Positions 2,995 through 62,350 of a stretch of 64,000 bases of DNA are shown piece by piece. The translations under genes and the position numbers were made by a program. Under the pieces are notes generated by a model, which saw only the letters and a program-made list of their open reading frames with translations, had not been told where the DNA came from and ran no database searches. How positions within the stretch are numbered: position 1 is the first letter of the stretch; each line of letters opens with the position of its first letter. Location: assembly GCA_030390025.1 (NCBI GenBank), contig CM059431.1:147748001-147812000 (forward strand). Direction: 5' to 3'. The DNA comes from Squalus acanthias. Taxonomy: Eukaryota.

Positions 2995-3400
2995 AGACAG
3001 GAGGCTTGTTAGGAAGATGGAAGCCCATAGAATTAAGGAAAAACTGATGGTATGGATACAGAATTGGCTCAGTGACAGGAAGTAAAGGCTGGTGATGGAT
3101 GGGTGTTTTTCAGAAGGGGAGGTGGTTTGCAGTGATGTTCCCCAAGGGTCTGTTTTGGGTCCGTTACTCTTTGCAACTTTTATAAACGAACTTGACTCGA
3201 GCAGCATTATAAGGTTTGCAAATTTCACGAAACGTGGCACCTTAATAGATAATGATGAGGATAGTTGCCGACTTCAGGATGACACAGACAGGAGGGTGAA
3301 ATGGGCAGAAGCATGGCAGATGGAGGTCAATCCCGAGAAGTGTGAAGTGATGCACTTTGGGAGGACTAATATGGAAATACAGCGCGGCTGCTCTTTCTAA
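2995..3400 (+). mobile_element. CR1 LINE RT fragment
   Basis: VPQGSVLGPLLF and W-QMEVNPEKCEVMHFGR motifs. Confidence 0.85.
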
Positions 3401-3609: not shown

Positions 3610-3681
3610 GGCCTGGTGGCGCAACGGTAGCGGGTCTGACTCCAGATCAGAAGGCTGCATGTTCAAATCACGTCGCGGTCA
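3610..3681 (+). tRNA. tRNA-Trp(CCA) variant, probable pseudogene
   Basis: 72 nt, ggcctggtggcgcaacggtagcgggtctgactCCAgatcagaagg...gttcaaatcacgtcgcggtca; mismatches in the acceptor and D stems. Confidence 0.85.
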
Positions 3682-4043: not shown

Positions 4044-4116
4044 TCCCGGATAGCTCAGTTGGCAGAGTATCAGACTTTTAATCTGAAGGTCCAAGGTTCA
4101 AGTCCCTTTTCGGGCT
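4044..4116 (+). tRNA. tRNA-Lys(TTT) variant, probable pseudogene
   Basis: cccggatagctcag...tcagactTTTaatctga...gttcaagtccc...cgggc followed by a T-run; several stem mismatches. Confidence 0.85.
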
Positions 4117-18260: not shown

Positions 18261-19160
18261 CTATGTCAGAGCCATAACAGCTCAGAAGGAGGCCATTCGG
18301 CCCATCGAGTCCGTACCGGCTCTTTGTAGAGCGATCCAGTCAGTCCCATTTCCCGGCTCTATCCCCGTAGCTCTGCAAGTTTTTTTTCCCTCATGTGCCT
18401 ATCCAATCTCCCCTTGAAAACATTGAGTGTCTCCGCTTCCACCACATCCATCGGCAGCGAATTCCAGGTCATCACCACTCGCTAAGTACATTTTTTTCCT
18501 CACGTCCCTCCTGTATCTCTTGCCCAAAACCTTAAATCTGTGTCCCCTAGCCCTTGTACCATCAACTAGTGAGAACAGATTTTCCCCGTCTAGCCTATCC
18601 AAACCCGTCATAACTTTGTACACCTCTATTAAATCACCCTTCAACCTCCTTTGCTCTAATGAAAACAAAACCAGCTTATCCAACCTGTCCTTATAGCTAA
18701 GATCCCCCATCCCTGGAAACATTCCATTAAATTTCATCTGCATCCTCTCAATGGCCTTCATATCCTTTCAAAAGTGTGGTGACCAGAACTGGACGTAATA
18801 ATCCAGTTGTAGCTCACCAGCATTTTATAAAGGTTCAGCATAACTTCTCTACTTATGTGCTCAATACCTCTATTTATGAAGCCCAAGATCCCACATGCTA
18901 TGCTAACCACTCTCTCTATGTCCTGCCACCTTCAGGGACCTATGCACATTAACTCGCAGGTCTCTCTGTCCCTGCAAACTCTTTAGAACTGTGCCATTAT
19001 GTGTATATTGCCTCTCCCTGTTCCTTCTGCCAAAATGCATCACCTCACACTTCTCTGTATTAAATTCCATCATGATGCGGAGATGCCGGTGTTGGACTGG
19101 GGTGGACAAAATTGAGAGGTCGCACAACACCAGGTTATAGTCCAACAGTTTTATTTGAAA

Positions 19161-19202
19161 TCACAAGCTTTCGGAGCTATCGATTGCTCCTTCCTCAGGT
19201 GA
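19161..19202 (-). ncRNA. minimal hammerhead ribozyme motif (mirror arm)
   Basis: Exact reverse complement of 19208-19249. Confidence 0.65.
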
Positions 19203-19207
19203 AGTCT

Positions 19208-19249
19208 TCACCTGAGGAAGGAGCAATCGATAGCTCCGAAAGCTTGTGA
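19208..19249 (+). ncRNA. minimal hammerhead ribozyme motif
   Basis: tcac-CTGAGGA-a-ggagc[aatcgata]gctcc-GAAA-gc-TT-gtga: core boxes, stem II, stem I tcac/gtga, palindromic aagctt stem III. Confidence 0.65.
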
Positions 19250-19411
19250 TTTCAAATAAAACTGTTGGACTATAACCTGGTGTTGTGCGACCTCTCAATT
19301 AAATTCCATCAGCCATTTGTCTGTTTGCCTTCTATGTCCTGCATAAATGTAACGGCTGGACAAGGGACGTGTCGTTTGGAAAGCATCGCCTGAATTATTC
19401 AAACATAGCCG

Positions 19412-19624: not shown

Positions 19625-19789
19625 ACGATAGCAAAATACTGCAGATGCTGGAAATCCGAAATAACAACAGAAAACGCTGGAAAGACTCAGCAGGCGAGGC
19701 AGCATCCGTGGAGAGAGAAACAGAGTTAACGTTTCAGGCCAAAGATGCTGCCTCGCCTGCTGAGTTTTTCCAGCGTTTTCTTTTGTTAT
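19625..19789. mobile_element. inverted-repeat mini-element derived from the Penelope 3' end, 13-bp TSD
   Basis: Arms match 39003-39083 in inverted arrangement; TSD cctggaatactgt at 19612-19624 and 19790-19802; empty site near 21688. Confidence 0.85.
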
Positions 19790-25339: not shown

Positions 25340-28300
25340 AAAGTTCTTTATCTGAATGCACGCAGCATTCGTAACAAAATGGACGATTTGTCGGTACAAA
25401 TAACTACACATGGGTATGATCTGGTGGCCATTACAGAAACATGGCTGCGAGGTGACCATGACTGGGAACTAAACATCCAGGGTTATTTGACTATTAGGAA
25501 GGACAGACAGGAAGGAAAGGGAGGTGGGGTGGCTATGTTAATAATGCGGAGATGCCGGTGTTGGACTGGGGTGGACAAAAATGAGAAGTCGCACAACACC
25601 AGGTTATAGTCCAACAGTTTTATTTAAAATTACGACCTTACGGAGCTGCTGCCCCTTCGTCAGGTAAAGGTACCTGACGAAGGGACAGCAGCTCTGAAAG
25701 CTCGGAATTTTAAATAAAACTGTTGGACTATAATCTGGTGGTGTGCGACTTCTCATTTATGTTAATAAAGGATGGGATCACTGCAATAGTGAAACATGAT
25801 ATTGGGTCAAAGGATCAGGATAGTGAAACAGTTTGGGTGGAGATAAGGAATAATAAGGGTAATAAGTCACTAGTGGGCGTAGTCTATAGGCCTCCTAACA
25901 GTTGTAACTCTATTGGTCGGAGTATAAATCAGGAAATAGTTGGGGCTTGTAATAAGGGAACAGCTATAATCATAGGAGATTTTAACTTTCATATTGACTG
26001 GACAAATCAAATTGGGCAGGGCAGCCTTGAGGAAGACTTCATAGAGTGTATTAGGGACGGGTTCCTTGAGCAGTATGTTACTGAACCAACCAGGGGGAAG
26101 GCAATCTTAGATCTGTTCCTCTGTAATGAGACAGGATTAATAAAAAATGTCCTGGTAAAGGATCCCCTTGGAATGAGTGACCATAACATGGTTGAATTCC
26201 AAATTCAGATGGAGGGTGAGAGAGTTGGATCTCAAACCAGCGTACTAAGCTTAAATAAAGGAGACTTGGAAGGTATGAGAGCAGAGTTGACTAAAGTGGA
26301 CTGGAAAAATAGATTAAGGTGTAAGACGGTACAGGAGCAGTGTTGTACATTCAAGGAGGTATTTCACAACTTTCAAGAAAAATATATTCCACTGAGGAAA
26401 AAGCGGCGTAAAAGAAAAGACAGCCATCTGTGAATAAGTAAAGTAATAAAGGATAGTATCCGACTGAAAACAAGGGCATATAAAGTAGTCAAATCTAGTG
26501 GGAGGATAGAAGATTGGGAAGCATTTAAAAGCGAGCAAAGAATAACTAAAAGATTAATTAAGAAGGGGAAGATAGATTATGAAAGTAAACTAGCAAAAAA
26601 TATAAAAACAGATAGCAAGAGTTTCTCCAGTTATATAAAAAGAAAAAGGGTGGCTAAAGTGAATGTTGGTCCCTTAGAGGACGATACCGGGAAATTAGTA
26701 GTGGGGAACACGGAGATGGCAAATACGCTGAGCAAACATTTTGTATCAGTCTTTACAGTAGAGGTTACTAAAAATATCCCAACACTGTACAAACGGGGGG
26801 CTATGGGGGGGAGGAGCTAAACACGATTAAAATCACTAAGGAGATGGTACTCGGTAAGCTAATGGGACTTAAGGCGGATAAATCACCTGGACCTGATGGC
26901 TTACATTCGAGGGGCTTGAGAGAAGCAGCGGTAGGGATTGCGGATGCATTGGTGGTAATTTTCCAAAACTCCCTGGATTCGGGAAAGGTCCCAGCAGATT
27001 GCAAAACTGCTAATGTAATGCCCTTATTTAAAAATGGAGGTAGACAAAAGGCTGGACACTATAGACCAGTTAGCCTAACATCTGTGGTTGTTAAAAGGTT
27101 GGAGTCCATTATTAAGGAAGCAGTAACAGGACATTTGGATAAGCATAATTTAATCGGACAGAGTCAGCATGGTTTTATGAAGGGGAAATCATGCTTGACA
27201 AATTTGCTCGATTTCTTTGAGGACGTAACAAACAGCTTGGATAATGGGGAAACAGTGAATGTGGTGGTTCTGGACTTCCAAAAGGCATTTGATAAGGTGC
27301 CACACAAATGATTACTGCACAAGATAAAACATCACTGGATTGGGGGTAATATACTGGCATGGGTGGAAGATTGGCTATCTAACAGAAAACAGAGAGTTGG
27401 GATAAATGGTTCATTCTCGGGTTGGCAATCAGTAACTAGTGGTGTTCCGCAAGAGTCAGTGCTGGGACCCCAACTCTTTACAATCTATATTAACGATTTG
27501 GAGGAGGGGACCAAGTGCAACGTAACCAAGTTTGCTGATGATACAAATATGGGAAGAAAAGCAGTGAGTGAGGAGGACATAAAAAACCTGCAAAACGACA
27601 TAGACAGTCTAAGTGAGTGGGGGTAAATTTGGCAGATGGATTATAATGTAGGAAAGTGTGAGGTTATACAATTTGGCAGAAAAATCAAAGAGCAAGTTAT
27701 TATCTAAAATGAAAGAAACTGCAAAGTGCTACAGTACAAAGGGATCTGGGGGTCCTGGTGCATGAAACACAGAAGGTTAGTATGCAGGTACAGCAGGTGA
27801 TCAGGAAGGCCAATGGAATATTGGCTTTTATTGCAAGGATGATGGAGTATAAAAGCAGGGAAGTCTTGCTTCAGCTATACAAGGTACTGGTTAGGCCACA
27901 CCTGGAATACTGCGTACAGTTTTGGTTTCCATATTTAACAAAATATATACTTGCTCTCGAGGCAGTTCAGAGAAGGTTCACTCGGTTGATTCCGGAGATG
28001 AGGGGGTTGACTTATGAGGAAAGGTTGAGTAGGTTGGGCCTCTACTCATTGGAATACAGAAGAATGAGAGGCGATCTTATCGAAACATATAAGATTGTGA
28101 GAGGGCTTGTTGGGGTGGAGGCGGGGAGGATGTTTCCACTGATGGGTGAGACCAGAACTAGGGGGCATAATCTTAGAATAAGGGGCTGCCGTTTAAAAAC
28201 TGAGATGAGGAGAAACTTCTTCACTCAGAGGGTAGTAAATCTATGGAATTTGCTACCTCAGAGAGCTGGGGAAGTTGTGACATTAAATAAATTTAAAACG

Positions 28301-33632: not shown

Positions 33633-35495
33633 GGACCGCCGCTGCCCCTGTGAGAAAATCATGTGACACAATAATTGGCGTTAGTTATAGTCACTTAACA
33701 AACAAGGGGCGATTTTCCCCTTCAGTGTGCCCCGGCCGCCACTGGGGAAATTGTACAAGTTAGTCCATGAAACTCCGTCCATTAAAATCAATGAACGGAA
33801 AGTAATCCCAGAGGGAATGTGCTCTGCGAATCTCTGGTGAGAAATGAAGGCAATATCCCTCCCGGACTCTGCATTAGGTTCTTGAAGTCACATGTTAATT
33901 TGGTAAAATCGTCACTCATCCATTGTATAAAGATTTGTTTTCTACTGTGATGATGAATGAAGATGAATTGGCTCTAACATGACTGACGATGATTCTAATC
34001 TTACATTACTGGTGGTGACCCTACTCTAACATTACTGGTGGTGACACTACTCTAACATTACTGGTGGTGACCCGACATTAACATTACTGGTGGTGACCCT
34101 GCTCTAACATTAATGCTGGTGGCCCTACTCTAACATTACTGGTGGTGACACTACTCTAAAATCACTGGTGGTGACCCTACTCTATCATTACTGGTGGTGA
34201 CCCTACTCTAACATTTACTGCTGGTGACCCTACTCTAACATTACTGGTGGTGATCCGACTCTAACATTAATGCTGGTGACCCTACTCTAACATTACTGGT
34301 GGTGACCCTACTCAAACATTACCGGTGGTGACCCTACTCTAACATTACTGGTGGTGACCCTACTCAAACATTACTGGTGGTGACACTACTCTAACATTAC
34401 TGGTGGTGACCCTACTCTAACATTCATGGTGGTGGCCCTACTCTAACATTACTGGTGGTGACCCTACTCTAACATTCATGTTGGTGGCCCTACTCTAACC
34501 ATACTGGTGGTGACCCTACTATAGCAATACTGGTGGTGAACCTACTCTAACATTACTGGTGGTGACCCTACTCTAACATTACTGGTGGTGACCCTACTCT
34601 AACATTACTGGTGGTGACCCTACACCAACAATACTGGTGGTGAACCTACTCTAACATTACTGGTGGTGACCCAACTCTAACATTACGGCTGGTGACCCTA
34701 CTCTAACATTACTGCTGGTGACCCTACTCTAACATTGCAGGTGGTGATCCTACTCTAACATTACTGCAGGTGACCCAACTCTAACATTACTGGTGGTGAC
34801 CTTACTCTAACATTACTGGTGGTGACCCTACTCTAACATTACTGCTGGTGGCCCTACTCTAACATTGCTGGTGGTGATCCTACTCTAACATTACTGCTGG
34901 TGACCTTACTCTAACATTACTGGTGGTGACCCTACTCTAAGATTACTGGTGGTGAGCCTACTCTCACATTAACGGTGTTGACCCTACGCTAACACTACTG
35001 AAGTTGATCCTACACTCACAGTACATGCCATGAATCTACGCTACCATTGCTGGTAGTGATCCTACTGCTTCATTATTAGTGGTGATCCTACTGTAACATT
35101 ACTGGCGGTGAAGCTGCTCTAACATTACTGGTGGTGACCCTACTCTAACATTACTGGTGGAGAACCTGCTCTAACATTACTGGTGGTGAACCTGCTCTAA
35201 CAGTACTGGTGGTGACCCTACTCTAACATTACTAGTGGTGACCCTACTCTAACATTACTGGTGGAGAAATTGCTCTAACATTACTGGAGGTGACCCTACT
35301 CTATCATTATTGGTCCTGACTCTTCTCTAACAATACTGCTGGTGACCCTACAATAACATTACTGTAGTCGTGCCCACTCTGAAATTAATGGTGGCGATTC
35401 TACTCTAAAATTAATGGTGTTGTTCCTACGCTAACATTACTGGTGCTTTTTCACTCTAACATTACTGGTGGTATCTCTAGTCTATCATTAATGAT

Positions 35496-35672
35496 CATGA
35501 TGCGAAGATGCCGGTGTTGGAATGGGGTGGACAAAAGTGAGAAGTCGCACAACACCAGGTTATAGTCCAACAGGTATATTTGAAATCACAAGCTTTAGGA
35601 GCAGCTGCTCCTTCGTCAGGTTTCAAATAAACCTGTTGGACTATTACCTGGTGTTGTGCGACTTCTCACTTT
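35496..35672. mobile_element. palindromic mini-element, copy 3 (asymmetric centre)
   Basis: Same leader and arms as 19073-19297; one hammerhead-like core on the minus strand; degenerate TSD. Confidence 0.8.
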
Positions 35673-36688
35673 TATAATTAATAATGGCAATCCTGTACTA
35701 ACATCATTTGTGGTGACGCTACTCTAACATTACTGGTGGAGATTCTACTCTAGCATTACTGTAATGACACTGCTCTATCATTACTGGTGGAGACCCTACT
35801 CTAACCTTACTGGTGGTGAATCACTCTAACATTAGGTTAGCTGACCCTACTCTAACATTAAATTTGTGGTTTCCCTACTCTAACATTATTGGTGGCCATA
35901 CTCGAACATTACTGGTGTAGACTTTACTCTAACATTACTGGCGGTGAACCAACACTTAAAGTACTGGTGGTGCCTCTACTCTAACGTTTATGGTTGTGAC
36001 CAAATTCTAACATTATTTATGGTGACTGTACTCCAACATTGCTGGTGGTAACACTATTCTAACGTTGCATGTGGTGAAACTACACTAACACAACTGATGA
36101 TGACACTGCTCTAACATAGCTGATTGTGACTGATTCCAACTAAACTTCCACCCTTCGTGTTTCGGATCAACCCAGGATTACAAATATCTCCAAGATATTC
36201 ATCGTTCCTCGAACTACTGCTCTCGCCGCATCTTGAGATCCACGCTCAACGCCATGCAGCGCCACATGAACACTCTCGACATCTCTCTTCAGCATCACCG
36301 ACGCACTCTATCTCAAAGCTGTCCGGGTCCACTGTTCCATTTCATCCTTAGACTCATCCGACGCTTCAACAAAAAACTTTTCTTCTTCCTTTCCGATGTC
36401 AAGGATCGCAAGCTTCAACAACTCTTGGACACTAACGCCCCTCCGGAACCTTCTTTCCCTTCACTTTCCTCTGACCCCCCTTCTCCCAATCTCACCCCCT
36501 GCCGCTGATTCACTATCCCCTCTGACCTTCCCCTCTCTGACTCCGAACGATCAGTCCTCAGCAAAGGCCTGACCTTCATCCCCTTACGCCCCCATCTCAA
36601 TGAATTTCGAGCTCGGCACGATGCTGAGCTCTTTTTCCGCCGCCTCCGTCTCCGTGCCCACTTCTCTGGCCAGGAGTCTTCCCCCCGC

Positions 36689-38698
36689 ATGGCTGACCCT
36701 TTCTCCCGCTTTCAGAATTCTCGTTCCACCTGGACCCCTCCCTCTGGCCTCTTACCCTCTCTAGATCTTTTCATTGCTAACTGCCGCCGTGACATCGGCC
36801 AGCTCAATTTCTCTGCTCCCCTCACTCACTCCAACCTACCTCCCTCTGAACTTGCAGCACTCCATTCTCTCCGATCCAACCCTGACATTGTCATTAAACC
36901 TGCTGACAAGGGTGGCGCTGTTGTTGTTTGGCGAACCGACCTCTACCTAGCGGAAGTTGAACGCCAACTCTCTGACACCTCCTCCTACCTCCACCTGGAC
37001 CATGACCCCACTACTGAACATCAAGCCACCGTGTCCAAGACCGTCACTGACCTCATCTCCTCTGGAGATCTTCCCCCCACGGCCGCCAACCTCATAGTTC
37101 CCCAACCGCGCAAAGCCCGCTTCTACCTCCTTCCCAAGATCCACAAACAGGACTGCCCCGGTAGACCCATCGTTTCAGCCTGTTCTTGCCCCACGGAAAT
37201 TATCTCTTCCTATCTCGACTCTATTTTTTCTCCCCTTGTCCAGTCTCTTCCCACCTACATCCGCGACTCTTCCGATGCCCTCCGCCATTTTAACAGTTTC
37301 CAGTTTCCCGGCCCCAACCGTCTCCTCTTCACTATGGACGTACAATCCCTCTACACCTCCATTCCCCACCAGGATGGCCTGAGGGCGCTCCGCTTCTTCC
37401 TTGAACAGAGGCCCAACCAGTCCCCATCCACCACCACCCTCCTCCGCCTGGCTGAACTTGTTCTCACATTGAACAACTTCTCCTTTGACTCTACCCATTT
37501 CCTCCAAATTAAAGGTGTTGCTATGGGTACCCGCATGGGTCCTAGCTATGCCTGCCTTTTCGTGGGATATGTGGAACACTCTTTGTTCCAGTCCTACTCG
37601 GGTCCCCTCCCTCACCTCTTTTTCCGGTACATTGATGAATGTATCGGTGCCGTCTCCTGCTCTCGCCCTGAACTAGAACATTTCATTCACTATGCTTCCA
37701 ATTTCCACCCTTCCCTCACCTTCACATGGTCCATCTCCGACTCTTCCCTTCCCTTCCTCGACTTCTCCATCTCCATCTCTGGGGATAGGTTATTGACTAA
37801 CATTCACTACAAGCCCACTGACTCCCACAGCTACCTGGACTACACTTCCTCCCACCCCGCCTCCTGTAAGGACTCTATTCCATTCTCCCAGTTTCTCCGT
37901 CTCCGCCGCATCTGCTCTGATGATGCCACCTTCCATACCGTTGCTTCCGACATGTCTTCCTTTTTCCTCAACCGAGGATTCCCCTCTACCGTGGTCGACA
38001 CGGCCCTGGACCGTGTCCGTTCTATCTCCCGCACTTCTGCCCTCACCCCTGCCCCTCCCTCCCGGAACCACGATAGGGTTCCCCTTGTCCTCACCTTTCA
38101 CCCCACCAGCCTCCACATTCAACGGATCATCCTCCGCCATTTCCGCCACCTCCAGCGTGATCCCACCACCAAACACATCTTCCCCTCACCTCCCCTTTCA
38201 GCATTCCGCAGGGACCGCTCCCTCCGCGACAACCTAGTCCACTCCTCTACCACCCCCAGCACCCCTTCCCCTTCGCCCGGCACCTTCGCGTGCACGCGCA
38301 GGAGATGCTACACATGCCCTTACACCTCCCCTCTTCCCACTGTCCAGGGCCCCAAACACCCCTTCCAGGTGAAACAGCGATTTACTTGTACTTCCTGCAA
38401 TTTAGTATACTGTATTCGCTGCTCACGATGTGGTCTCCTCTACATTGGGGAGACCAAACGCAGATTGGGTGACCGCTTTGCGGAACACCTCCGTTCAGTC
38501 CGTAAGGGGGACCCCGAGCTCCCGGTGGCCTGTCACTTTAATTCACCGCTTCACTCCCACTCTGACCTCACCGTCCTCGGCCTATTACACTGTTCCACGG
38601 AAGCGCAGCGTAAGCTCGAGGAACAGCACCTCATCTTTCGTTTAGGCACGCTACAGCCCTCTGGACTCAATATCGAGTTCAACAATTTTAGATCATAA
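36689..38698 (+). CDS. Penelope RT + GIY-YIG endonuclease
   Basis: 669 aa: KPADKG, LPKIHK, MDVQSLYT, GVAMG, RYIDE, FLD, LVYCIRCSRCGLLYIGET. The frame extends upstream to 36134 through one TGA at 36506-36508. Confidence 0.93.
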   Translation: MADPFSRFQNSRSTWTPPSGLLPSLDLFIANCRRDIGQLNFSAPLTHSNLPPSELAALHSLRSNPDIVIKPADKGGAVVVWRTDLYLAEVERQLSDTSSYLHLDHDPTTEHQATVSKTVTDLISSGDLPPTAANLIVPQPRKARFYLLPKIHKQDCPGRPIVSACSCPTEIISSYLDSIFSPLVQSLPTYIRDSSDALRHFNSFQFPGPNRLLFTMDVQSLYTSIPHQDGLRALRFFLEQRPNQSPSTTTLLRLAELVLTLNNFSFDSTHFLQIKGVAMGTRMGPSYACLFVGYVEHSLFQSYSGPLPHLFFRYIDECIGAVSCSRPELEHFIHYASNFHPSLTFTWSISDSSLPFLDFSISISGDRLLTNIHYKPTDSHSYLDYTSSHPASCKDSIPFSQFLRLRRICSDDATFHTVASDMSSFFLNRGFPSTVVDTALDRVRSISRTSALTPAPPSRNHDRVPLVLTFHPTSLHIQRIILRHFRHLQRDPTTKHIFPSPPLSAFRRDRSLRDNLVHSSTTPSTPSPSPGTFACTRRRCYTCPYTSPLPTVQGPKHPFQVKQRFTCTSCNLVYCIRCSRCGLLYIGETKRRLGDRFAEHLRSVRKGDPELPVACHFNSPLHSHSDLTVLGLLHCSTEAQRKLEEQHLIFRLGTLQPSGLNIEFNNFRS

Positions 38699-38981
38699 CC
38701 TCAGCTCCAATCACATTTATATTTTATTTTTTCCACCCTTTTATTTGCCCCCCCCCACCTTTTTTCCTTTTTTCCTCCTAGAAGCTGGCATCTGTCCTTC
38801 ATTCTGCTAGTGGATTTCACGCTTCTTTCAGCCTTAATCTGTCACATTTACACCACCTCTAGCCTTGCATATCTCTTAATGTCTCTTAATGTCTCTTCAT
38901 CTCCCCCTTTGTTCTTTTATCCCCTCCCCCTTTTCCCAGCTTTACTCTGGCCTTAAATCTATTTGATTTCCGGCTCTTCAC

Positions 38982-39018
38982 AGTTCTGATGAAAGGTCAT
39001 CGACCTGAAACGTTAACT
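38982..39018 (+). ncRNA. minimal hammerhead ribozyme in the Penelope 3' tail
   Basis: agtt-CTGATGA-a-aggtc[atc]gacct-GAAA-c-GTT-aact: stem I agtt/aact, stem II, palindromic aacgtt stem III. Confidence 0.75.
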
Positions 39019-41995
39019 CTCTTTCTCTCTCCACGGATGCTGCCTGGCCTGCTGAGTTTTTCCAGCGTTTTCTGTTGTTATTTCATAGCTGATTGTGACC
39101 CTACTCTAACATTACTGGTGGAGACCCTACTCTAACATTACTTTGGTGAAACTACTTTAACATTACTGTTTGTGTCCCTGTTCGAACATTACTGTTGGTG
39201 AACCTACTGTAACATTATTGGTGTTTACCCTGCTCTAACATAACTGGTGGTGACCCTACTCTAGCGATACTGCTGTTGAAACTATTCTAACATTACTGTT
39301 GGTGACCCTGGTCGGACATTACTAATGGTGAACCTAGTCTAGCATTACTGATGGTGATCCTACTGTAACATTACTGGTGGTGACTCTACTCTAACAATAC
39401 TGACTTTGACACGGTGATTACATTACTCTAACATAACTGGTGCTGTCTCGACTGTAACATTACTGATGATGACCCTACTCTAACATTACTTGTGATGACA
39501 CCATTCTTACATTACTGGTTGTGGACCTACTCTAACATTACAGGTGGTGATCCTACTTTAACATTAATGAAGTTGATCGTACTCTCAGTGTAAATGTCAT
39601 GACACTAGTCTATCATTGCCAGTAGTGATCCTACTCCTACATTACAAGTGGTGAACCTACTCTAAAATTAATCGTTATATCCCAAATCTAACCTTACTGG
39701 TGTTGATCCTACTTTTACGTTACTGTTGGTGACCTTACTCTAAAGTTTCTCTTCGTGAAACTAATTTAACACTACTGATGGTGACCATTCTCCAACATTA
39801 CTGGTGGTGACAGTGATTTAAAATTACCTTTGGTTACCCCACTCTGGCATAACTGATTGTAACCCTTCTGTATAATTGCTGTTGGTGACCCTACTCTAAC
39901 ATTATTGGTGGTGAATCTACTCCAACATTAATGGTGGTGACCCCACACTAACATTACTGGTGCTGACTGCACTCTAACATTACTGGTGGTGACCCTACTC
40001 TAACATTACTGTTGGTGTCTCAACTCTAACATTACTGGTGGTGACCCTACACTAACATTACTAGTGGTGACCCTACTCTAACATTACTGTTGGTGACCCT
40101 GGTCGAATATTACGGGTGGTGGACCTACTCTAACATTTTTGGTGTTTACCCGGCACTAACATAACGGGTGATAACCCTATTCTATCGTTACTACTGTTGA
40201 AACTATTCTAACATTACTGTTTCTGACCCTGGTCAAACTTAGTGGTGGTAAACCTAGTCTAGCATTACTGATGGTGATTCTACTGTACCATTACTGGTGG
40301 TGACTCTACTTTAACAGTAATGATGGTGATCCTACTGTAACATTACTGATGGTGACGCTACTCTAACATTACTGATTGTAACACGATGATTACATTACTG
40401 CTGGTGACTCTACGCTAACTTTATTGGTGGTGAACCTACTCTAACATTACTGATGGTGACCCTATTTTAACATTACTGGTGGTGAGCCTATGATTAATTT
40501 ACTGGTATAAAAACAGAAAATGCTGGAGAAACTCAGCCACATGCTGTTTAATCTGATTACAGTCAGACTGTAATCATACATTTCTCTTGGACGCAATGAG
40601 AAATTATTCCACTTCAAAATTAACCGTACAACAAATGGGAGACATTAGCATCACCAATAATTAAACAGTAACTGTTACAAAGCAAACAGAGAGATTTTTA
40701 TTCGAGGGACATTGCATTGGTTGGTGATGCTGAATGCCCTGTTACATTGTTCCGGACAATGAGTGGGTATGACGGTGTACTCTGAGACTATGTCATCATA
40801 CCCCTTTGAATTATGATACAAGTTCGGGATTTCCGCGCATGCGCTAAATCCTGATCTTGCGTTCTTGCCTTGAAAGATCCTGCTGTGAAAAAACAATTAT
40901 TGGCGCAGAGTTGGGCTGTTTGCCCACCAACTACCCATCAATTACCGAGTTGTTTCTTTTGCTTGGTGAAAGCAAGTGAAGGAGCCTGTTTCACATCGTA
41001 AAAGAAGATCTGCAGTGGAAAAATCAACATTTCGCATTTCCTGATACCAAGACAAACATGGGATAGCGCCGTTTACATCTGCTCAATCAATTTTGATTGG
41101 AAAATGATTAGTCCTCCCTTGCATGTTTTCTTAACAATGCTACAAATCAATTTTAGGAACAAATACAGAGAGAAAATACCTGTCACTTGCAATGAAAAAG
41201 TTTCCTGAATATTGGTGGAGAAAATGTGGCAAACAGACTCCTCGCTTAAAAGTAACTGACTGCAGAGAGGTTTGATTTGATTTGATGCAGATACAGAGGA
41301 CAAGAATCTTATTCATCCTGTGAGGTTTCTGTGTGATGAATAAAGCTTTTTAGAGCAAAGAACCCAGCACACAGACGGTTAGACGGGTTGAGGCTGATTT
41401 ATTAATAGCAGAGCTACATTGTGCAGGTTTAGGTGGAGGAGACTTTTTTTCATCGACCGTGTTTCATTTTAATTACTTGGGAAGTTGAACAAGAAACTTA
41501 AATAAAGTGAACATCTGTCAGATTTCAGAGACCAATTCTGTCCTTTTAACTCAAAAATGAACAACATAACAAACAATATAATGCATCCATAACAAGGAAA
41601 AAAGATTGTTTCCTATTACCACTATAAATTATATATATTAATCCTGAAAATTAACATTGAATATCTGGCTGTGAATCTCTTTCTGAAGTTCAGCCACATT
41701 ACATTTAGGAGGTATAAAACATTGTTAGTCATTTAGTGAGCATCAGAACAGGAAGTTATAAACATAGGGATTAGTAAATTGTGAGTTTGATGAAAAAAAG
41801 CAAATGCTGATCTATGAAATAAGTCCAAGTAGCAGTTTAATTAGAAGGTTTTAACAGCTTAGGTCTTCCCAATATCTAGCTGGAGGAAATTCCTGTTTAT
41901 CCAGGACTGGATGGCGGACAAGCTGTCTGACAATTTAGAGACCGTGCCTATTTGGAGCAAATAATGAATCAGACAAGGGCAGCCTTTCTATTGTA

Positions 41996-45009: not shown

Positions 45010-46347
45010 TCAGTCAGACTGTGACATTCTTGTATAGGGACTCATATCCATACATCTCTCTCTGGGTGTCACTTGATTAACCATCATGACACTTACAGCA
45101 GTCCGTGACATTTGAGCGCAATAATATTTTAACAATAGGACCAGACCACACATCATTAATATTATAACAAAGAACAAAATCAATCCTTGTACTACTGATG
45201 TCCCGAGTGATCCTAACCATCCAGTTGCCCAGCCCCAAAGGGTGGATGCCGGAGGTTGTTTTAATTTCTTTACTTCCTCCTGTATGTGTTCTGCCAAATT
45301 AGTTATTGCTTCCGAGTTATCTGGTATGTAGGTACAACATTCTGTACCTATTAGGGCACAGGTTCCCCCTTTTTCGGCCAATACATAGTCAAGGGCCATT
45401 CGATTTTGTAGAGCTACTGTGCGGAGGGCTACCATCTCTGCATTAACCAAAACTAAGGCTTCAGCTGTATCGTTGGCCACCTATTCCAAGACGGAGGCCA
45501 GGTTAATGGATTCCCTTGACAATTTACCCGCTCCATACCAGGGGAACGCAATTGCCCAGAATCTTTCAGTCCCTGAGATGGCTCGTCTGGTTCTCCCGTG
45601 GAGGTCCTTCAGCGAACCCATGTGATGTATGTAGGGTATGACATAAGCCAGATAACAAGAACCCGACCATTCTCGAGGCAACCAGGGATAGGCCCTATGA
45701 ACGCACACGAAATGAGTCCCGTTGTAGGGGGTATACTTATTTATCTCTGGAGGGTCCCATTGTACTGAGAAATCACTGCTTTCGTTTAGTGATGGGAGTT
45801 TCACACTACCCGTCTCACCAGGCAAGGCAATGTTATATGTGCAGTTACTGTAGCCCACAATTTGATCTGTCGGTCGTCCCCTCTTTACGAGACATAGTCC
45901 CCCCTCTTTTTCCCTTCTCACTCCTCGTTCTCAGGAACGGTGGTAGATAGGAACCGTTATATGTTGACCGTGTCCACCCACTACAATATTCTGGGTCGTA
46001 CCCATGACGTTGGAGCTTTACTATAGTGCTGCTGTCTGTTTCAGCTTCATAACAGCCGACACTTGTGCATCCTGCTCTAACTCCAAACATCCAACTGACC
46101 GTCCATCATCACTAAGTGGGATTGGTTGTAGGGGGACTCCTTCCTCCGAATGTTTCGGGACATGGGCGCAGACCCAACATCTGGCAACATCAACTCTCTT
46201 AGCATATGTGTATGACATATATAAAATTGTGTTTACCCGTAACTCTCTTTTGACCCGTGGGGGTACTCTAACCTGAGTATTCCCGAAACTACATATTAGG
46301 ATTATACAGACTAACAAACTACATATGATATTGCATAACACGTTCAT
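45010..46347 (-). pseudogene. env: ERV envelope, gamma-type, disrupted
   Basis: Signal peptide, CWVC, furin site RTRR, ISD LQNRMALDYVLAEKGGTC, CALIGTECC (CX6CC) and TM helix; split over several frames. Confidence 0.93.
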
Positions 46348-46680
46348 CTTATCACTTTATGTTAACAATGTCCCAAAGGCTATATCGCCAACCGAACCGC
46401 TTTGTTGCTTGTAGATTCTATTTTCCTGTGGGGGTGAATAGAATACTATCATTAGGCTGGTTCCTCAATCACAACCATCTGGATTTCTTCCCGTGGATCA
46501 ACCGGTCGGAGTTGACGGGACCGTTCCCATACATATTTCAGGATATATCCCTATTATATCCTATCAAGATAATACATATTATCCAAACCAGTGTTTGCGT
46601 CAGCGTTCATTCCCATTCGTCATATTGTCTAGCATATTCTTCACTTTCTACAAAAGGTACTTGTTCTGGTGCAGCCATTC

Positions 46681-49600
46681 TTAAATTGGTGAAGGGTCAT
46701 AGACTTTTAGCTGTGTCCAGGGCTTCCATCGTCCCATGCCCTTCATATCAATGCAAGCACACGTATCCCCACTAATTAAAATCTGATATGGTCCTAACCA
46801 TTTTGGGGCAAACCCTGGTTTCCCTGGTAAACCTTTAACCATTACCTTAGTCCCGGATGGAGGGATATATGGGAGCGCGGTCAATTCTAATTCCTTATCC
46901 TTTTCTTCCTGTCTGTCCCGCGTTTGCTGCCTCATTTCCTTTAATTGACTGCTTAATTCGAGGACATACCTTCGGAGCTTATCCTTTAGAGGACCCACAT
47001 CCTCTCCTCCAGTTATTATGCCATGGGGGAGTTGCATTGCCCTCCCCGTCATTAGCTCATATGGTAATAAGCCCGTTGTTCGGTTTGGGTTGGCTCTTAG
47101 TTTCATTAAGACTGCTGGTAACACATCTACCCACTGTTGATGTTTGTCCCCTAAAGCCTTGGCTAAGTCTGTTTTCAAGGTTCGGTTTATTCGTTCCACC
47201 ATTCCAGAACTTTGGGGATGGTACGGAATGTGGAATTTCTGCTTTATGCCCATCCAATTGCATACATTCTTAACTACTGCTCCCGTAAAGTGAGTTCCCT
47301 GATCTGAGTCAATTTGGATCGGTATTCCCCACCTGGGAATTATTTCCTTTGCCATTATTCATGCCACGGTAGTGGCAGTACAGTCCCGGGTTGGGAATGC
47401 CTCAACCCACCTAGTAAACTGATCTATTATTACCAGGCAATACTTCTTACCCCTTGATGTGGGGAGGGGTCCGGTGAAGTCTATTTGTATATTTTCCCAT
47501 GGGCCCCTCGGCCGTGGTTGGTGGGCCATCCGTATCTTAACAGGTCGTCTTGGGTTGTGCTGGGCTCATGCAATACACCGCTGGCAATGTTTTGCCACCT
47601 ATCTTCCCAACCCAGGCCACCACCATTCTTTACTTATCAGGTCAATCATCGGCCCTCTTCCTGTATGGGCGTCTCCATGGTGTAGTTCTAAGAGCATCTG
47701 CCTGATACATGCGGCAGCTATCACCTTCCCATTTTGTCCGCCATATAGCTTCCTTGTCTGGTCTACCTCCTGTGCGCTACCTTTCCTGTTTCTCCCCTTC
47801 TTGGGTCTCTTTGTGTAATTTCCTAATATCTATTTCTTCCACCTGTGCACTTCTTACGTTTCCTATAATTCTTTCTGTTTTAATGCTTGTTGTGCTGCTA
47901 GATGTGCTGCTCGGTTTCCCTCCTGTTGAGGGTTCTCTATCTTCTGGTGGGCTTTTATCTTTACTACTGCCGCTCGTGTGGGAGACTTTGCGGCTTTCAA
48001 AAGGGCTTCTATTCGTTGTTGATGTTTAATGTGATCTCCTCCTGTTGTGACAAATCCTCGTCTCCCCCAAGCTGCCATGTAATCATGCACTACCCCAAAT
48101 GCATATCTGCTATCCGTATAGATATTAGACGTCTTTACTTTTGCCAAATTTAGGGCTTCTGTCAGTGCCACTAGCTCCGCCACCTGAGCCGATAGTCCTC
48201 CATCTAATCTGCCTGATACCAACGTTTGTCCCTTTTCATTAACTACTGCCCACCCCGTCCTGGGTGACCCGTCTATGTATTTTCGAGAAACGTCTACATA
48301 TAGGGTTAATTGTGCCTCTTCCAGTGTTTCGTCATCTAAGAGGTCGTTATCGTCCTCATCGTCTATTTCAGTGCATTCATGAGGCTCTCCCGTTCCCAGA
48401 ACGCCTTCCGCCGGGTTTTCCCCTATGACTCTAATGATATTTATTGATCCATCCCTGGGTAATAAAACTGCTTCCCAACGTGCTCTTCGCATGTTGGACA
48501 CTGACCGTAGCTTGTTATTAATTAACATTTCCACCAATGTATGTTTGGTGTGTAAGATGATATCTCCAGTCATTACCGTGGGTTCACTTACTTTCACAGC
48601 CCACGCTGCACAGTCTAGTGCTGTCACACATCGTGACATGCCTGCAACTACCGGTGACTGTTGAGTAGAGTAATACACTGCCGGTCGGCTTTTATCGCCA
48701 TGATGCTGGGTTATTACCGCAGCATAAAATCCCCCTTCATTCTCACAGTGAATGTGGAACGGCCTTTTCATATTGGGTAGTCCGAGACCGGGGGCTGATA
48801 TTAACGCCTGTTTTAGTTTCCCATATGCTTCCTCTTGTTCCGTACCCCATTTGATAAGGGCATTACCCGGATTTCCCCCTTTTACTAACCTTTGTATTGG
48901 TTCTGCTATTGCCGCAAAGTTAGGTATGAAGTTCCTACTGTAATTAAAGATGCCCAAAACTTTCCTAATCCCTCTAACTGACACCGGTCGGGGCATCTCT
49001 TGTATTGCCTTCCGACGGTCGCTATGCATTGTTCTAACTCCCTGAGATATTTGTTGTCCAAGGTATGTAACCTCACCTTGTCCAATTTGGACTTTCTTGG
49101 GATTTACCTTAAACCTCCCTTTCTCTAAGGTCTGTAAAATTACAGTTAGGGCGGCCGCATGTCCGCGCTCGTCTTCTGAGGCAATTAGCAGATCATTCAC
49201 GTATTGCAAAACAGTACTGCGATAAGGGGCGATGTCTGCTGTTTCCAGCAGTGAACTCATTATCCGGTGGAATATCGCCGGGCTATTATGGAACCCCTGG
49301 GGCAGTCGAGTCCATGTGTATTGTCTATTCCCTACGGTGAATGCAAATTTATTTTGGGATTCAGGATCCAAGGGTAAGGACCAAAATCCATTAGCTATGT
49401 CCAAAACTGTAAAAATCTTATGCTCTGGGTTCAATGCATGTAAGATTGTGGATGGGCTCGCCACTATTGGTTGTAATTTGGGCGTCACCTTGTTTAATTC
49501 GGTGTAATCAATAGTCAGTCGGAATGACTTATCTGGTTTGGGAACTGTCCATACGGGCGAGTTGGTTGTCCTTTCGGTAATCCTAATTATGCCTTTCTCT

Positions 49601-50214
49601 TCCAGCTCACGCACTATGCCTTGTACTGCTTCCCGTGCTTCGGATTTAATAGGCTATTGCTTATGGGGCTTGTGCTCCGGACCTGGAACCATGATTGGCT
49701 CTATTTTTACCTGTCCGGTGTCTTGTTTTGTCTTTGCCCAAACCCCGTCCATGATCTGGCATATGGCCCCGTATGGTGTCCGTTCTAATTCCCAATCCCT
49801 GCTTAAAGATGTTGCGCTTCCTACCTTTGCCAGGTTAGTGCATGGTTTATCTATGCTAACTTTGGACCCATTTCCTTTGGACCAAACAATCTTATTTTGC
49901 GCTGAGTCTACCAATATATTGAATTCTTTTAGCAGATCTATTCCTAATATGGTACCTTCGTTGTTTGGACACACGTAAAACTGTGCGGGAAGGAGTTTCC
50001 CTGTTAACTCTAAAACTTGTACTTCACTTTCATAGGCCTTAATTTTTGTCCCCCCCAGTCCTACTATATATATATATTCCTTAGTTGTCGGAAGGGTTAA
50101 ATCAGTTAAAGATGCTGATGCTCCGGTGTCAACTAGCATTTCACACGGTTGGCCCCCCAATAATGCCGCCACGTAGACTCGGTTATCCGAGTCTCCCTTT
50201 GCTGGGGGTTCCAC
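46681..50214 (-). pseudogene. pol: ERV pro-pol (protease, RT, RNase H, integrase), disrupted
   Basis: LVDTGA; LDIANGFW, LPQGFHNSP, YVND (D>N); LYVD, AELVAL, YTDSRY; DSDQGTHF, VERIN, WLGPY. Confidence 0.95.
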
Positions 50215-50217
50215 CCG

Positions 50218-51524
50218 TCATTGACCCTTTCCCTTTAACTTGAGGTACTCCACAAAGTCCCTCTTATCCTCCGGACTGAGATAAGCGACCTGTGTCTGGT
50301 CCACGTCTCCTTTCTTCTGCCAGCAGTTGTGGCTCTGGTGTCCTAGCTTTCCACAGTAGTCACATCGCCCCCCTTTTCCACTCCTGCAGTCCTTTGCCAT
50401 ATGTCCCATTTTTCCACAAGTATAACAGCTCCCCTGGATCCTCCTGTATGGTTGCGATGTCTGCCCTGCTGCTACCTTCTCCTGTTTGATTTTTACACCT
50501 CCCTTTCCTGTGGGTTCAGGTCCCTTAGCATCTATCTGACATGCCCATTGAACCGCGAGATCGTATGTAGGGGCAACCGACACTCCCAACTCTAGGATGG
50601 CTTGGTGTGCCGATGAGAGTCCACCTTAAACAGCTGGATAAAGGACTGGTCTGTTCGCTGTGGATTTGCTTGCCCTGACGATTCACAATAAGCATCAAAC
50701 AATCGCTTTCAATACTCACTACTAGAATCTCCCTTTGATTGTTTTACTGATTGGATTTTTCCCCAATTTATAGTAGGACCACCAAGTGCTGCTTCTACTG
50801 CGATTTTAAAAGGACCAAATGCTGCGTGTTGTGCCGCCTGTGCGGCACCCGCAGCCACTGCATCTGCCGATGCTCCATCCTGCATGCCTACAGCGGGGTT
50901 TACATTTCTCCATTTGTCGGCTGGGCATGAGGCCCTAACTAACTGAGGGATATGCTTACAGTGTATATCATGGATGTCCCACATTCCCTCTAGAATTCTC
51001 CAGAACTCGGCGTTCTGACTGCGGGGTTTGACGGTTCCCAAATGTTTGAGAACGGCTTGTTTTTCAAAAGGCGTGAAAGCCCGATATCGACTGTTGGCTG
51101 CCGCTGGGTATCGTATTACGGGTGCCATCGGCACTACCGGAACGTCCCCTTCGTTTTCGATTGGGGGCGAGGCATACGGTGGGGGCCTTTCTTTATCCTC
51201 ACCATTTCTATTCCCTCTATTTGTCAATTCCATCAGTTCTATTATACTTTCAATTTCGGCTATTCTCTTTCCTTGTTCTTCCATCTTACTGGTTTGTGTC
51301 TTAACCCCTTTTGTTATCATTATCAACTGATGTATTAAAATTACTCCTGCCTTTCTAGTTTTCTTTTGTTTCTGCTTCTCCCACCACTCCCGTTGCGCCA
51401 TTAGGTTTCCTAGTGGATCCCATCCATCCTTCTTCATTATCTCAATAAAACCCTTTTGGTCCTCGGCGTAGAGCCGACTCATGGATCCTGGCGGGCCCCA
51501 ATCTGGTTCCTCGCCCGCCGCCAT
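50218..51524 (-). pseudogene. gag: ERV gag, disrupted, with two CCHC zinc knuckles
   Basis: PPPY late motif; CYTCGKMGHMAKDC and CDYCGKLGHQSHNC. Confidence 0.9.
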
Positions 51525-52131
51525 AATGTATTATTCTTTGTCACTAGTTTACCGCGTTCCCGTCCGCCCTAGCAACTCGTTCTCAGAGGGTCTGCCTATC
51601 GTCCACCACTTGTATGATGGCGGCCTGACTTGTAACTATCTTGCTCTCAGAGGTGAAGGTTTCACTTGTCTCAGAGGTGATTATTTCACTTGCCTCAGAG
51701 GTGATGTTTCACTTGTAGCCATTAATACATTATCACAATTCTTCACGTAATACCATCCAATAGATCCCGCAACACAACGCAGCAGAGAGGTTCTTACACA
51801 TTCTTTGTCTGTCTCGGATTCCCAACTAACTCTGGCCGTCACGTGGGGCCCAATCGCCCTCTTAATTTCAGCTCGGCATGGGTCCTCGAGACATTTACAT
51901 TCCGAAATAACGCATCAGGCTTCAATCATCTTAACTACGATTAATAAATTACAAACACTTCATGTGCCACCTAGGTTTTAATAAAATGTTTGCCCACCGT
52001 CACAGACACCAGATTCGTTTGATACTGCGTTGCCGAACACACCCCCCTTCCGAGTGACCCAATTTCTGGGCGGTCAAAGATTTGACTACTCGCCCTGTTC
52101 ACTGGTGCAGGCGGTTTTCAGCTCCGAAGTA

Positions 52132-61607: not shown

Positions 61608-62350
61608 TTATCGTAATAATTCAAGATCTGTTCCTGAAATGTAATAGTATATTAAATATATAACATATACCAACCACAGAAGTATGAAGCTGGCGGATAT
61701 GGTGAGGAGTAAAATCACAGACTTCCTTCTGGTCTCCATCTCTGGGTCTCTGCCATTCTCTCCCTTGCTCTCACCCCTCAGTCCCTTACGGACTCGACCG
61801 GCCACTAAAATGTTTTTGACTGTCAGAGCGTTGAGCAACAGAATTAAAGCGAATGGGAGCAATGGGTTTAAAACCGTATCAAACCAGTCAAAACCCACCC
61901 ATCCGGGCTCAGTAAAATAGCTTGGCTTTACAACACAGAACAGTGGCACATTGTCAATTTTCTCTGCAGGTTCGTTTATAAAGTAGAAGGGAACGTTTTT
62001 TAAACAGAGCAATATGCCAGTTGTTGCTAGAACCACAGCCGCAGTTTTCTCGGTGATATATTTTGTTTTAAGCTTCTGGCAACAAATGGCCACAAATCCA
62101 TCAAAGGTGAAAGTGATGGTGAACCAGACAGAACAGTCTGCAGCTGCACGAGTCAGGACAAGGATAACACTACACACAGGGGTGATGTCCAGGAAAGACA
62201 AAGGGAAATAATACCAGTTGATCTGCCTCAGTATCACCTCAGTGATAATAACCAGTAGATCCGCCGCTGCCATGGCCACCAGGTAGCGAGTGGTGCAGTT
62301 GGAGAGCCCACACTTTCACCAGGACTGGATCACAATCGCCACCAAATTAA
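61608..62350 (-). pseudogene. GPR139-like class A GPCR, exon 2, pseudogene
   Basis: Acceptor tttttacAG at 62351-62352; NLVAIVIQSW*KCGLSNCTTRYLVAMAAADLLV...TFDGFVAICC...LPFALILLLNAL...RRKSVILL; in-frame TGA at 62316-62318; TM7 absent. Confidence 0.88.

Follow-up and report, generated by a model that had tools for sequence, protein, structure and literature searches.

A short palindrome with a ribozyme motif on each strand may be a mobile unit in its own right or a remnant left by the integration of a larger element, and an insert of 225 bases in Squalus acanthias raises the question of which of the two it represents. It lies in a 64,000-nt stretch of DNA (assembly GCA_030390025.1, contig CM059431.1, positions 147,748,001 to 147,812,000; hereafter the window, to which all coordinates refer). 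The initial annotation, made from the letters of the sequence, described it as a member of a non-autonomous, retrozyme-like family. The structural part of that description held, as the perfect 95-bp arms, the leader of about 37 nt (here a 37-nt tail) and both copies of the 14-bp target site duplication (TSD) were located, and a separate regex search, run over all of the window, recovered the pattern stemI-CUGAGGA-stemII-GAAA-GC-UU-stemI on both strands of the insert (copy 1). Element positions are given with the prefix q, q1 being window position 19204 on the minus strand and q0 position 19205. The features of copy 1 are the following:

18486 to 19070, minus strand: decayed LINE remnant (CR1/L2-type RT), the insertion target of copy 1 (tblastn E-values 5e-38 and 2e-32, with a pair of LINE frames from the window as queries)
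19059 to 19072, no strand: left TSD, 14 bp, the final 3 nt also fitting the arm end
19073 to 19109, minus strand: Penelope-like element (PLE) 'tail', 37 nt, q96 to q132, spanning the gap between two putative RT start sites
19110 to 19205, minus strand: long tail-bearing arm, sense on this strand, q0 to q95 of the leader/pLTR
19161 to 19202, minus strand: minimal type I hammerhead motif, cut predicted between 19165 and 19164, after CUU
19205, minus strand: palindrome centre, initiator A (q0), presumed to be the base at which the capped RNA of the element begins
19206 to 19300, plus strand: short tail-less inverted arm, q1 to q95
19208 to 19249, plus strand: second copy of the hammerhead motif (regex scan)
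19298 to 19311, no strand: right TSD, 14 bp

The 225 bases are two head-to-head copies of the start of one element's leader. On the minus strand, inverted q95 to q1 is followed by direct q0 to q132 (q135 including the 3 nt common with the TSD); the arms 19110–19204 and 19206–19300, 95 bp each and 100% complementary, are separated by 1 nt, and the 14-bp TSD overlaps either arm end by 3 nt. We use 'tail' as it is defined for PLEs (PMC8557442, PMC11167929); in intact copies the ATG of the ORF comes directly after this stretch. A 27-mer of the arm had 53,523 exact matches in the 3.7 Gb genome searched, against 0 for the reversed control, so that chance is no explanation, and the matches were often arranged as minus/plus pairs, with spacings that ranged from tens of bases up to 2.9 kb.

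The derivation from a Penelope element, suggested initially together with a search for the parent ORF, was borne out. The long arm is identical, over 19070–19205, at 135 of 136 positions to the leaders of two loci, L132 and L031, the first of which is an intact RT + GIY-YIG element encoding 892 aa from the ATG after the tail, directly behind this leader. Its protein has an RVT_1 match, a CX4CXXC linker (CHGKLCKTC) between RT and EN, and a C-terminal end which, read from the sequence, resembles GIY-YIG (VVY..YIG with CCHH, two cysteines between the motifs); Pfam gave no GIY-YIG call on the L132 protein itself, and this end aligns with that of a paralogue in the window having a weak Pfam GIY-YIG match. 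A CX2-5CxxC linker between RT and EN is described as a feature of the Neptune and Nematis clades (PMC8557442), and by its linker and GIY-YIG features the parent would be a Neptune/Nematis-type EN+ PLE. L031, the ORF of which is frameshifted near its end, contains an inverted arm, pLTR, ORF, 3' UTR, pLTR and tail, all inside a TSD, and the hallmarks of EN+ PLEs (pLTRs, partial tandems, an adjacent inverted 5'-truncated copy) are present in this and other loci. An open frame of 921 codons occurred in about 25 of the 150 best RT matches, 20 such loci being examined, and intact RT + GIY-YIG copies carry the copy-1 leader directly before the ATG, 30–32 nt behind a TATA box. Copy 1 is a recent stub, of known layout, of a PLE with a Neptune-type linker: it is not a new ribozyme family but an ordinary recent transposon scar.

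Two related copies had been reported in the window; their places and the 11-bp TSD of copy 2 were confirmed, but their hammerheads proved damaged or missing:

25545 to 25757, minus strand: copy 2, older and of a different subfamily, with an 11-bp TSD at 25534–25544 and 25758–25768
35496 to 35672, minus strand: copy 3, older and of a different subfamily, in a 26-bp minisatellite, its inverted arm ending at q45

Copy 2 sits inside a LINE endonuclease frame, and its hammerheads have mismatched stems on one arm while the opposite arm reads GTAA in place of GAAA. In copy 3 a single hammerhead remains, with G12 changed, as the other arm ends before the motif; the duplication of this copy is degenerate (11/13). 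Copy 1 alone among the three has two intact motifs, and no ORF in the 64-kb window carries this end, in line with the early statement that it contains no such autonomous element. The 26-bp minisatellite containing copy 3 comprises about 100 units (~33840–36500 and beyond).

The copy census proposed at the outset was run on the tail stretch, which lacks the hammerhead, yielding 34,669 exact matches genome-wide; details were taken from the first 100 of them, which exact-match patterns located within the initial 9 Mb of a single contig and which represent 97 distinct sites (the other 3 were identical and merged, or not recovered). Mini-palindromes accounted for 49 of these 97 tail-bearing sites (95% interval 40–61%), while an inverted arm lay 249–3515 nt off in 30 and farther in 2, and 16 had none within the DNA examined around the site; sizes form a continuum from mini-palindromes to kilobase arms and full elements. 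The mini-palindromes have TSDs of 10–16 bp in 48 of 49 cases (mode 12–13, 70% AT), compared with 4–9 bp in 193 of 194 mismatched (shuffled) flank pairs, a variable length that differs from the fixed short TSDs by which an ordinary MITE was to have been recognized. Their outer ends are near-fixed, at q92–96 in 34 of 49 and at q132–136 in 39 of 49. If the sample holds, half of the 34,669 matches, at least about 17,000 inserts, would form hairpins and could supply double-stranded RNA in host transcripts; for copy 1, the long hairpin anticipated earlier is indeed predicted for transcripts crossing the insert. By raw count, ten insertions (L034, L066, L098, L131, L132, L139, L154, L178, L213, L243) occurred at one word of a LINE repeat, CTCTATTTATGA, an empty site of which lies in the window near 18870. 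They may reflect a preference for this target, perhaps aided by the likeness of the word to the element's own q-9..0.

The centres of the palindromes differ from copy to copy, with 43 different junction coordinates among the 49 mini-palindromes and an overlap of 0–6 nt in 34 or an insert of 1–37 nt in 15. The pattern of the window's subfamily (N7=G) matched 781 palindromes genome-wide, and in the first 50 of these the centre seen in the window was found four times and another centre nine times. The two loci with the window's centre that were read, L152 and L157, differ from copy 1 in stem-II allele, ends and TSD, and another recurrent centre occurs with five stem-II alleles; since the same centre appears in different subfamilies, it has likely been rebuilt at each insertion rather than inherited. 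Certain complex centres are nevertheless common to insertions with different TSDs (L043/L044, with the tail on opposite arms, and L046/L047/L048). Genome-wide they are found at only 2 and 3 places, within 0.1–0.55 Mb, and such sharing among near neighbours fits ectopic gene conversion between nearby hairpins, which is its likely source.

The two arms of an insertion generally come from one source, because they almost always agree in subfamily letters (36/36, 34/34 and 44/44 at three sites) and because long arms are mostly closer to each other than to any other copy. Stem-II alleles nonetheless differ between arms in 8 of 23 older copies, for which a single template is insufficient unless conversion followed or RT made errors. 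The mismatch suggested that each insertion might have used two different RNA templates, against which stand the close match between most long arms and the visible traces of local conversion.

The 5' ends of the arms are concentrated at one place in the leader. The per-base stop rate was 0.036–0.039 in q12..-6 and 0.004–0.008 on either side (about fivefold), the peak being present in both arm types, and 24 of 176 ends fell at q0/q1. A TATA motif is located at q-30..-37 in all 25 tail-picked arms that reach so far (27 rows, 2 of them too short), 20 of which have it at -30 to -32. The base at q0 is an A within an initiator-like word, with pyrimidines on its flanks. Solo pLTRs with a TSD, joined straight to target DNA, also begin exactly at q0. 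Each of the two arm types was seen without a partner or extending in full to q0, with a TSD and with an extra G. A TATA box and initiator have been described in a rotifer pLTR (PMC3846280), while for a Drosophila Penelope-like element a TATA-less internal promoter is reported instead (PMC2377424). Among 20 intact-ORF copies only 5 end within q+8..-26, the other 15 extending 124–4820 nt upstream, which means that templates often reach past the q0 promoter and that read-through RNA is a common template. One raw poly(A) RNA run had 0 reads mapping to the element.

The extra letter at these ends was followed through several comparisons. A non-template purine precedes q0 at 3,182 sites and is G in 85 of the first 100 (judged by eye); no G was present at q-1 among upstream regions picked by the TATA motif, and control arms starting at q1 had G 20, T 25 and C 55 times as the non-template letter (100 listed, by eye). 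With the 42 rows explicable by a 1-nt overlap left aside, the excess of G was 43:15, with p = 1.5e-6 against genome composition; it was not significant (p = 0.14) under a null in which a G-rich partner arm supplies the letter at 2:1. Full reading of 58 loci identified 18 arms with a letter from neither target nor partner, 14 of them G and 4 A (by eye, p = 0.003); in the remaining arms the letter was templated or of uncertain source. For L1 and SVA, an untemplated G at full-length 5' ends is interpreted as the copied cap (PMC4859970), and by the same token the extra G at q0 junctions is likely a reverse-transcribed cap. A literature search (mostly without subscription journals and Repbase reports) found no report of a cap-derived G or of run-off at the start site at inverted PLE junctions. 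This clue is our sole addition to published knowledge, the inverted pLTR with tail and TSD as well as the pLTR hammerheads having already been published.

The stub is probably the product of one insertion, in which the first 95 and the first 132 bases of the leader were copied as both cut DNA ends primed RT on a likely capped RNA. RNA polymerase II would start at the initiator A (q0) and the RNA would be capped; the endonuclease would cut the two strands about 12–13 bp apart, as the TSDs suggest, and RT would start internally at ~q92–96 and ~q132–136. With priming on the first pLTR, both cDNAs would run off the 5' end at ~95 and ~132 nt, in many cases with the cap copied into an additional G, whereas long arms would result when a read-through RNA is primed at one of its later pLTRs. 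End-joining would then link the two cDNA ends, leaving a short overlap or a small templated insert, and the product would be a dead-end stub, in which the hammerheads are passengers of the parent leader and predicted to be locked in the hairpin. A precedent is given by the Poseidon protein of a lizard, which in vitro cuts and extends both target strands, with two internal RT starts bounding the tail and uncleaved RNA as the template (PMC11167929).

The hammerhead itself was compared across 215 arms, partly picked by core-containing patterns. The core was conserved at 90–100%, as expected initially, with N7 at 46%, and CCGA stood in place of CUGA in 20 of the 215 arms; H17 was U in 182 and C in 33. 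Non-core bases adjoining the core were equally conserved, and variation fell on N7, loop II, H17 and paired stem positions. Stems I and II covary, with 97.5% of cells paired and 0 of 500 shuffles reaching this, the alleles being related and the independent events few; C-G/U-A swaps occur in stem I in 9 of 31 alleles and in stem II in 3. The variant core, CCGACGA rather than CUGANGA, belongs to a subfamily tied to intact ORFs (L039, L041, L077, L138, L139). Young intact copies carry U17, a slow hammerhead variant; the C of H17 lies in a CpG, and U may stem from deamination followed by fixation. A U is permitted by the NUH triplet (PMC2238771). The core and stems fit the minimal, dimer-type motif of pLTRs described in PMC4209133, as proposed in the initial annotation, and minimal pLTR hammerheads are there reported as inactive in monomers and of low activity in dimers. 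The suggested profile search, made against Rfam, gave no hammerhead match at E ≤ 1 and only a generic hairpin match below the gathering score.

Folding predictions argue against the cleavage of host transcripts in either orientation that had been envisaged. In the full palindrome the predicted probability of both hammerhead stems was 0.000 on either strand, the antisense arm coming first, and each strand has one sense motif where a dimer is thought to be needed, which makes such cleavage unlikely; for read-through RNA the probability of both stems was likewise predicted to be 0.000. In the first 60–140 nt of the parent RNA, stem II was predicted at 0.87–0.96 and stem I at 0.41–0.79, with a drop to 0.02 at 300 nt. 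Two units cofolded in the model via the loop-II palindrome, not as a hammerhead dimer, a result with no bearing on activity. Templates cut by the hammerhead were also considered and found no support: 5 of 97 tail arms end at q40–42 against about 2 expected (p = 0.057), and in the first 100 of 308 junctions at q30–47 (by eye) 3-nt overlaps at q35 (23) exceeded 2-nt overlaps at q41 (11), while overlap-free junctions (7 at q41, 10 at q38) had no excess at the cut site. We lean slightly towards reading the stubs as a fossil record of Penelope integration, in which both arms would be first-strand copies of uncut, capped sense mRNA, each primed at one of two fixed internal sites, and the extra G would place the cap at a single base lying 3 nt ahead of the hammerhead. 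On this reading the ribozyme would serve as a decapping switch at the start of the mRNA and not as a tool for making templates, and antisense self-priming would fail for this family.

The origin of tandem and inverted PLE structures is described as still undefined (PMC8557442), and the junction census discriminates between models of PLE insertion and yields a prediction of the transcription start to one base. Antisense self-priming has been proposed for such structures (PMC3846280), and here a fold-back, in which a cDNA ending at the RNA 5' end folds and serves as the DNA template of its own second arm, or else self-priming on an antisense template, would account for arms that are usually near-identical with private changes in common (L075, L097, L039), for several centres that form a perfect palindrome or fall within a self-complementary word, and for the similar arm lengths frequent in long copies. 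We consider it improbable, however. The tail arm was shorter in 27, longer in 12 and tied in 10 of the 49 mini-palindromes (p = 0.024), and a tail-less arm that reaches further 5', as in 27 of 39 untied cases, is beyond what simple fold-back of the tail-primed strand can produce, with the caveat that later deletion at palindrome centres could obscure which arm was longer; moreover, arms of either type are found unpaired, with a TSD and an extra G, and the ends pile up at the sense-strand TATA/initiator position.

The pile-up at q0 could also have arisen after insertion, with long perfect palindromes collapsing by deletion towards the hairpin-rich hammerhead region. Long palindromes are unstable, and many junctions use overlaps inside the hammerhead stems; yet the base at q0 is also where solo, non-palindromic pLTRs with TSD begin, and arms with an inverted partner of kilobase length (L002, L031) share this start, and the extra G is not predicted, so we give collapse very little credence. 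It is just as hard to maintain that the palindromes are copied whole, as a non-autonomous retrozyme-like or MITE-like family. The high numbers (781 places for one subfamily pattern and, if the sample holds, about half of all tail matches), the recurrence of some centres and the two complex centres common to insertions with different TSDs speak for such a family moving as a unit, but the recurrent centres cut across subfamilies, the shared complex ones are at just 2 and 3 neighbouring places, as local gene conversion gives, junctions are mostly distinct, the 10–16-bp TSDs and asymmetric ends are unlike those of a MITE, no head-to-tail tandem occurs, and sizes grade up to full elements. Priming of both cut ends on one capped RNA remains our preferred reading.

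Known systems resemble this one to different degrees. The two parts produced in L1 twin priming are adjacent pieces of the RNA, whereas in our element one stretch is represented in both arms, copied from two fixed sites. The L1 case is similar in that inversion results from two priming events and that an untemplated G occurs at full-length 5' ends (PMC4859970). Insertions of EN+ PLEs (Pen2a_Av, PMC3846280; scheme in PMC8557442) have the same head-to-head inverted pLTR, one-sided tail of 30–40 bp, TSD of about 9–14 bp, TATA and initiator in the pLTR and strong 5' truncation, but in the present case only two pLTR stubs remain, about half of the sampled insertions are stub-sized and the copy number reaches tens of thousands. 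PAc, a Poseidon element of Anolis (PMC11167929), shares the two RT starts bounding the tail, the cutting and extension of both strands, the AT-rich targets and the use of uncleaved RNA as template; it differs from our element, which has a Neptune/Nematis-type CX4CXXC linker and a hammerhead and tail wholly before the ATG, in having the latter two inside the ORF. The hammerheads of metazoan PLE pLTRs (PMC4209133) agree with ours in the type I core, in the unpaired base that precedes stem II, in G10.1-C11.1, in the palindromic 15.2-16.2 and in a stem I of 4 bp, and in Schistosoma they occur as opposite-strand pairs 100–700 bp apart; stem II is 5 bp here and 7–8 bp there, the triplet is mostly CUU here, and the CCGA subfamily is a further difference. 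Animal (non-LTR) retrozymes (bioRxiv 10.64898/2026.07.22.740005) are likewise non-coding, derived from PLE pLTRs and equipped with a type I hammerhead, but they are defined there as tandem repeats with two consecutive hammerhead units, in contrast to the arrangement described here, in which the pair is inverted and either strand has a single sense motif.

The window also contains a second Penelope-like family at 36509–39085, with a 729-codon frame (36509–38695; RT and a weak Pfam GIY-YIG match) the protein of which is 35% identical to that of the parent element of copy 1, and with a hammerhead motif of its own at ~38982 (CUGAUGA, GAAA-CG-U); related pLTR pieces are found elsewhere, one of them at ~19650–19770. 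A retrovirus-like element on the minus strand (45013–51530) has separate RT/RNase H, integrase and env (TLV_coat) frames, a frame of the rhodopsin family of GPCRs (7tm_1) is located at 61611–62315 on the minus strand, and tRNA-like sequences that exceed the gathering score in Rfam lie at 3610–3681 and 4044–4116.
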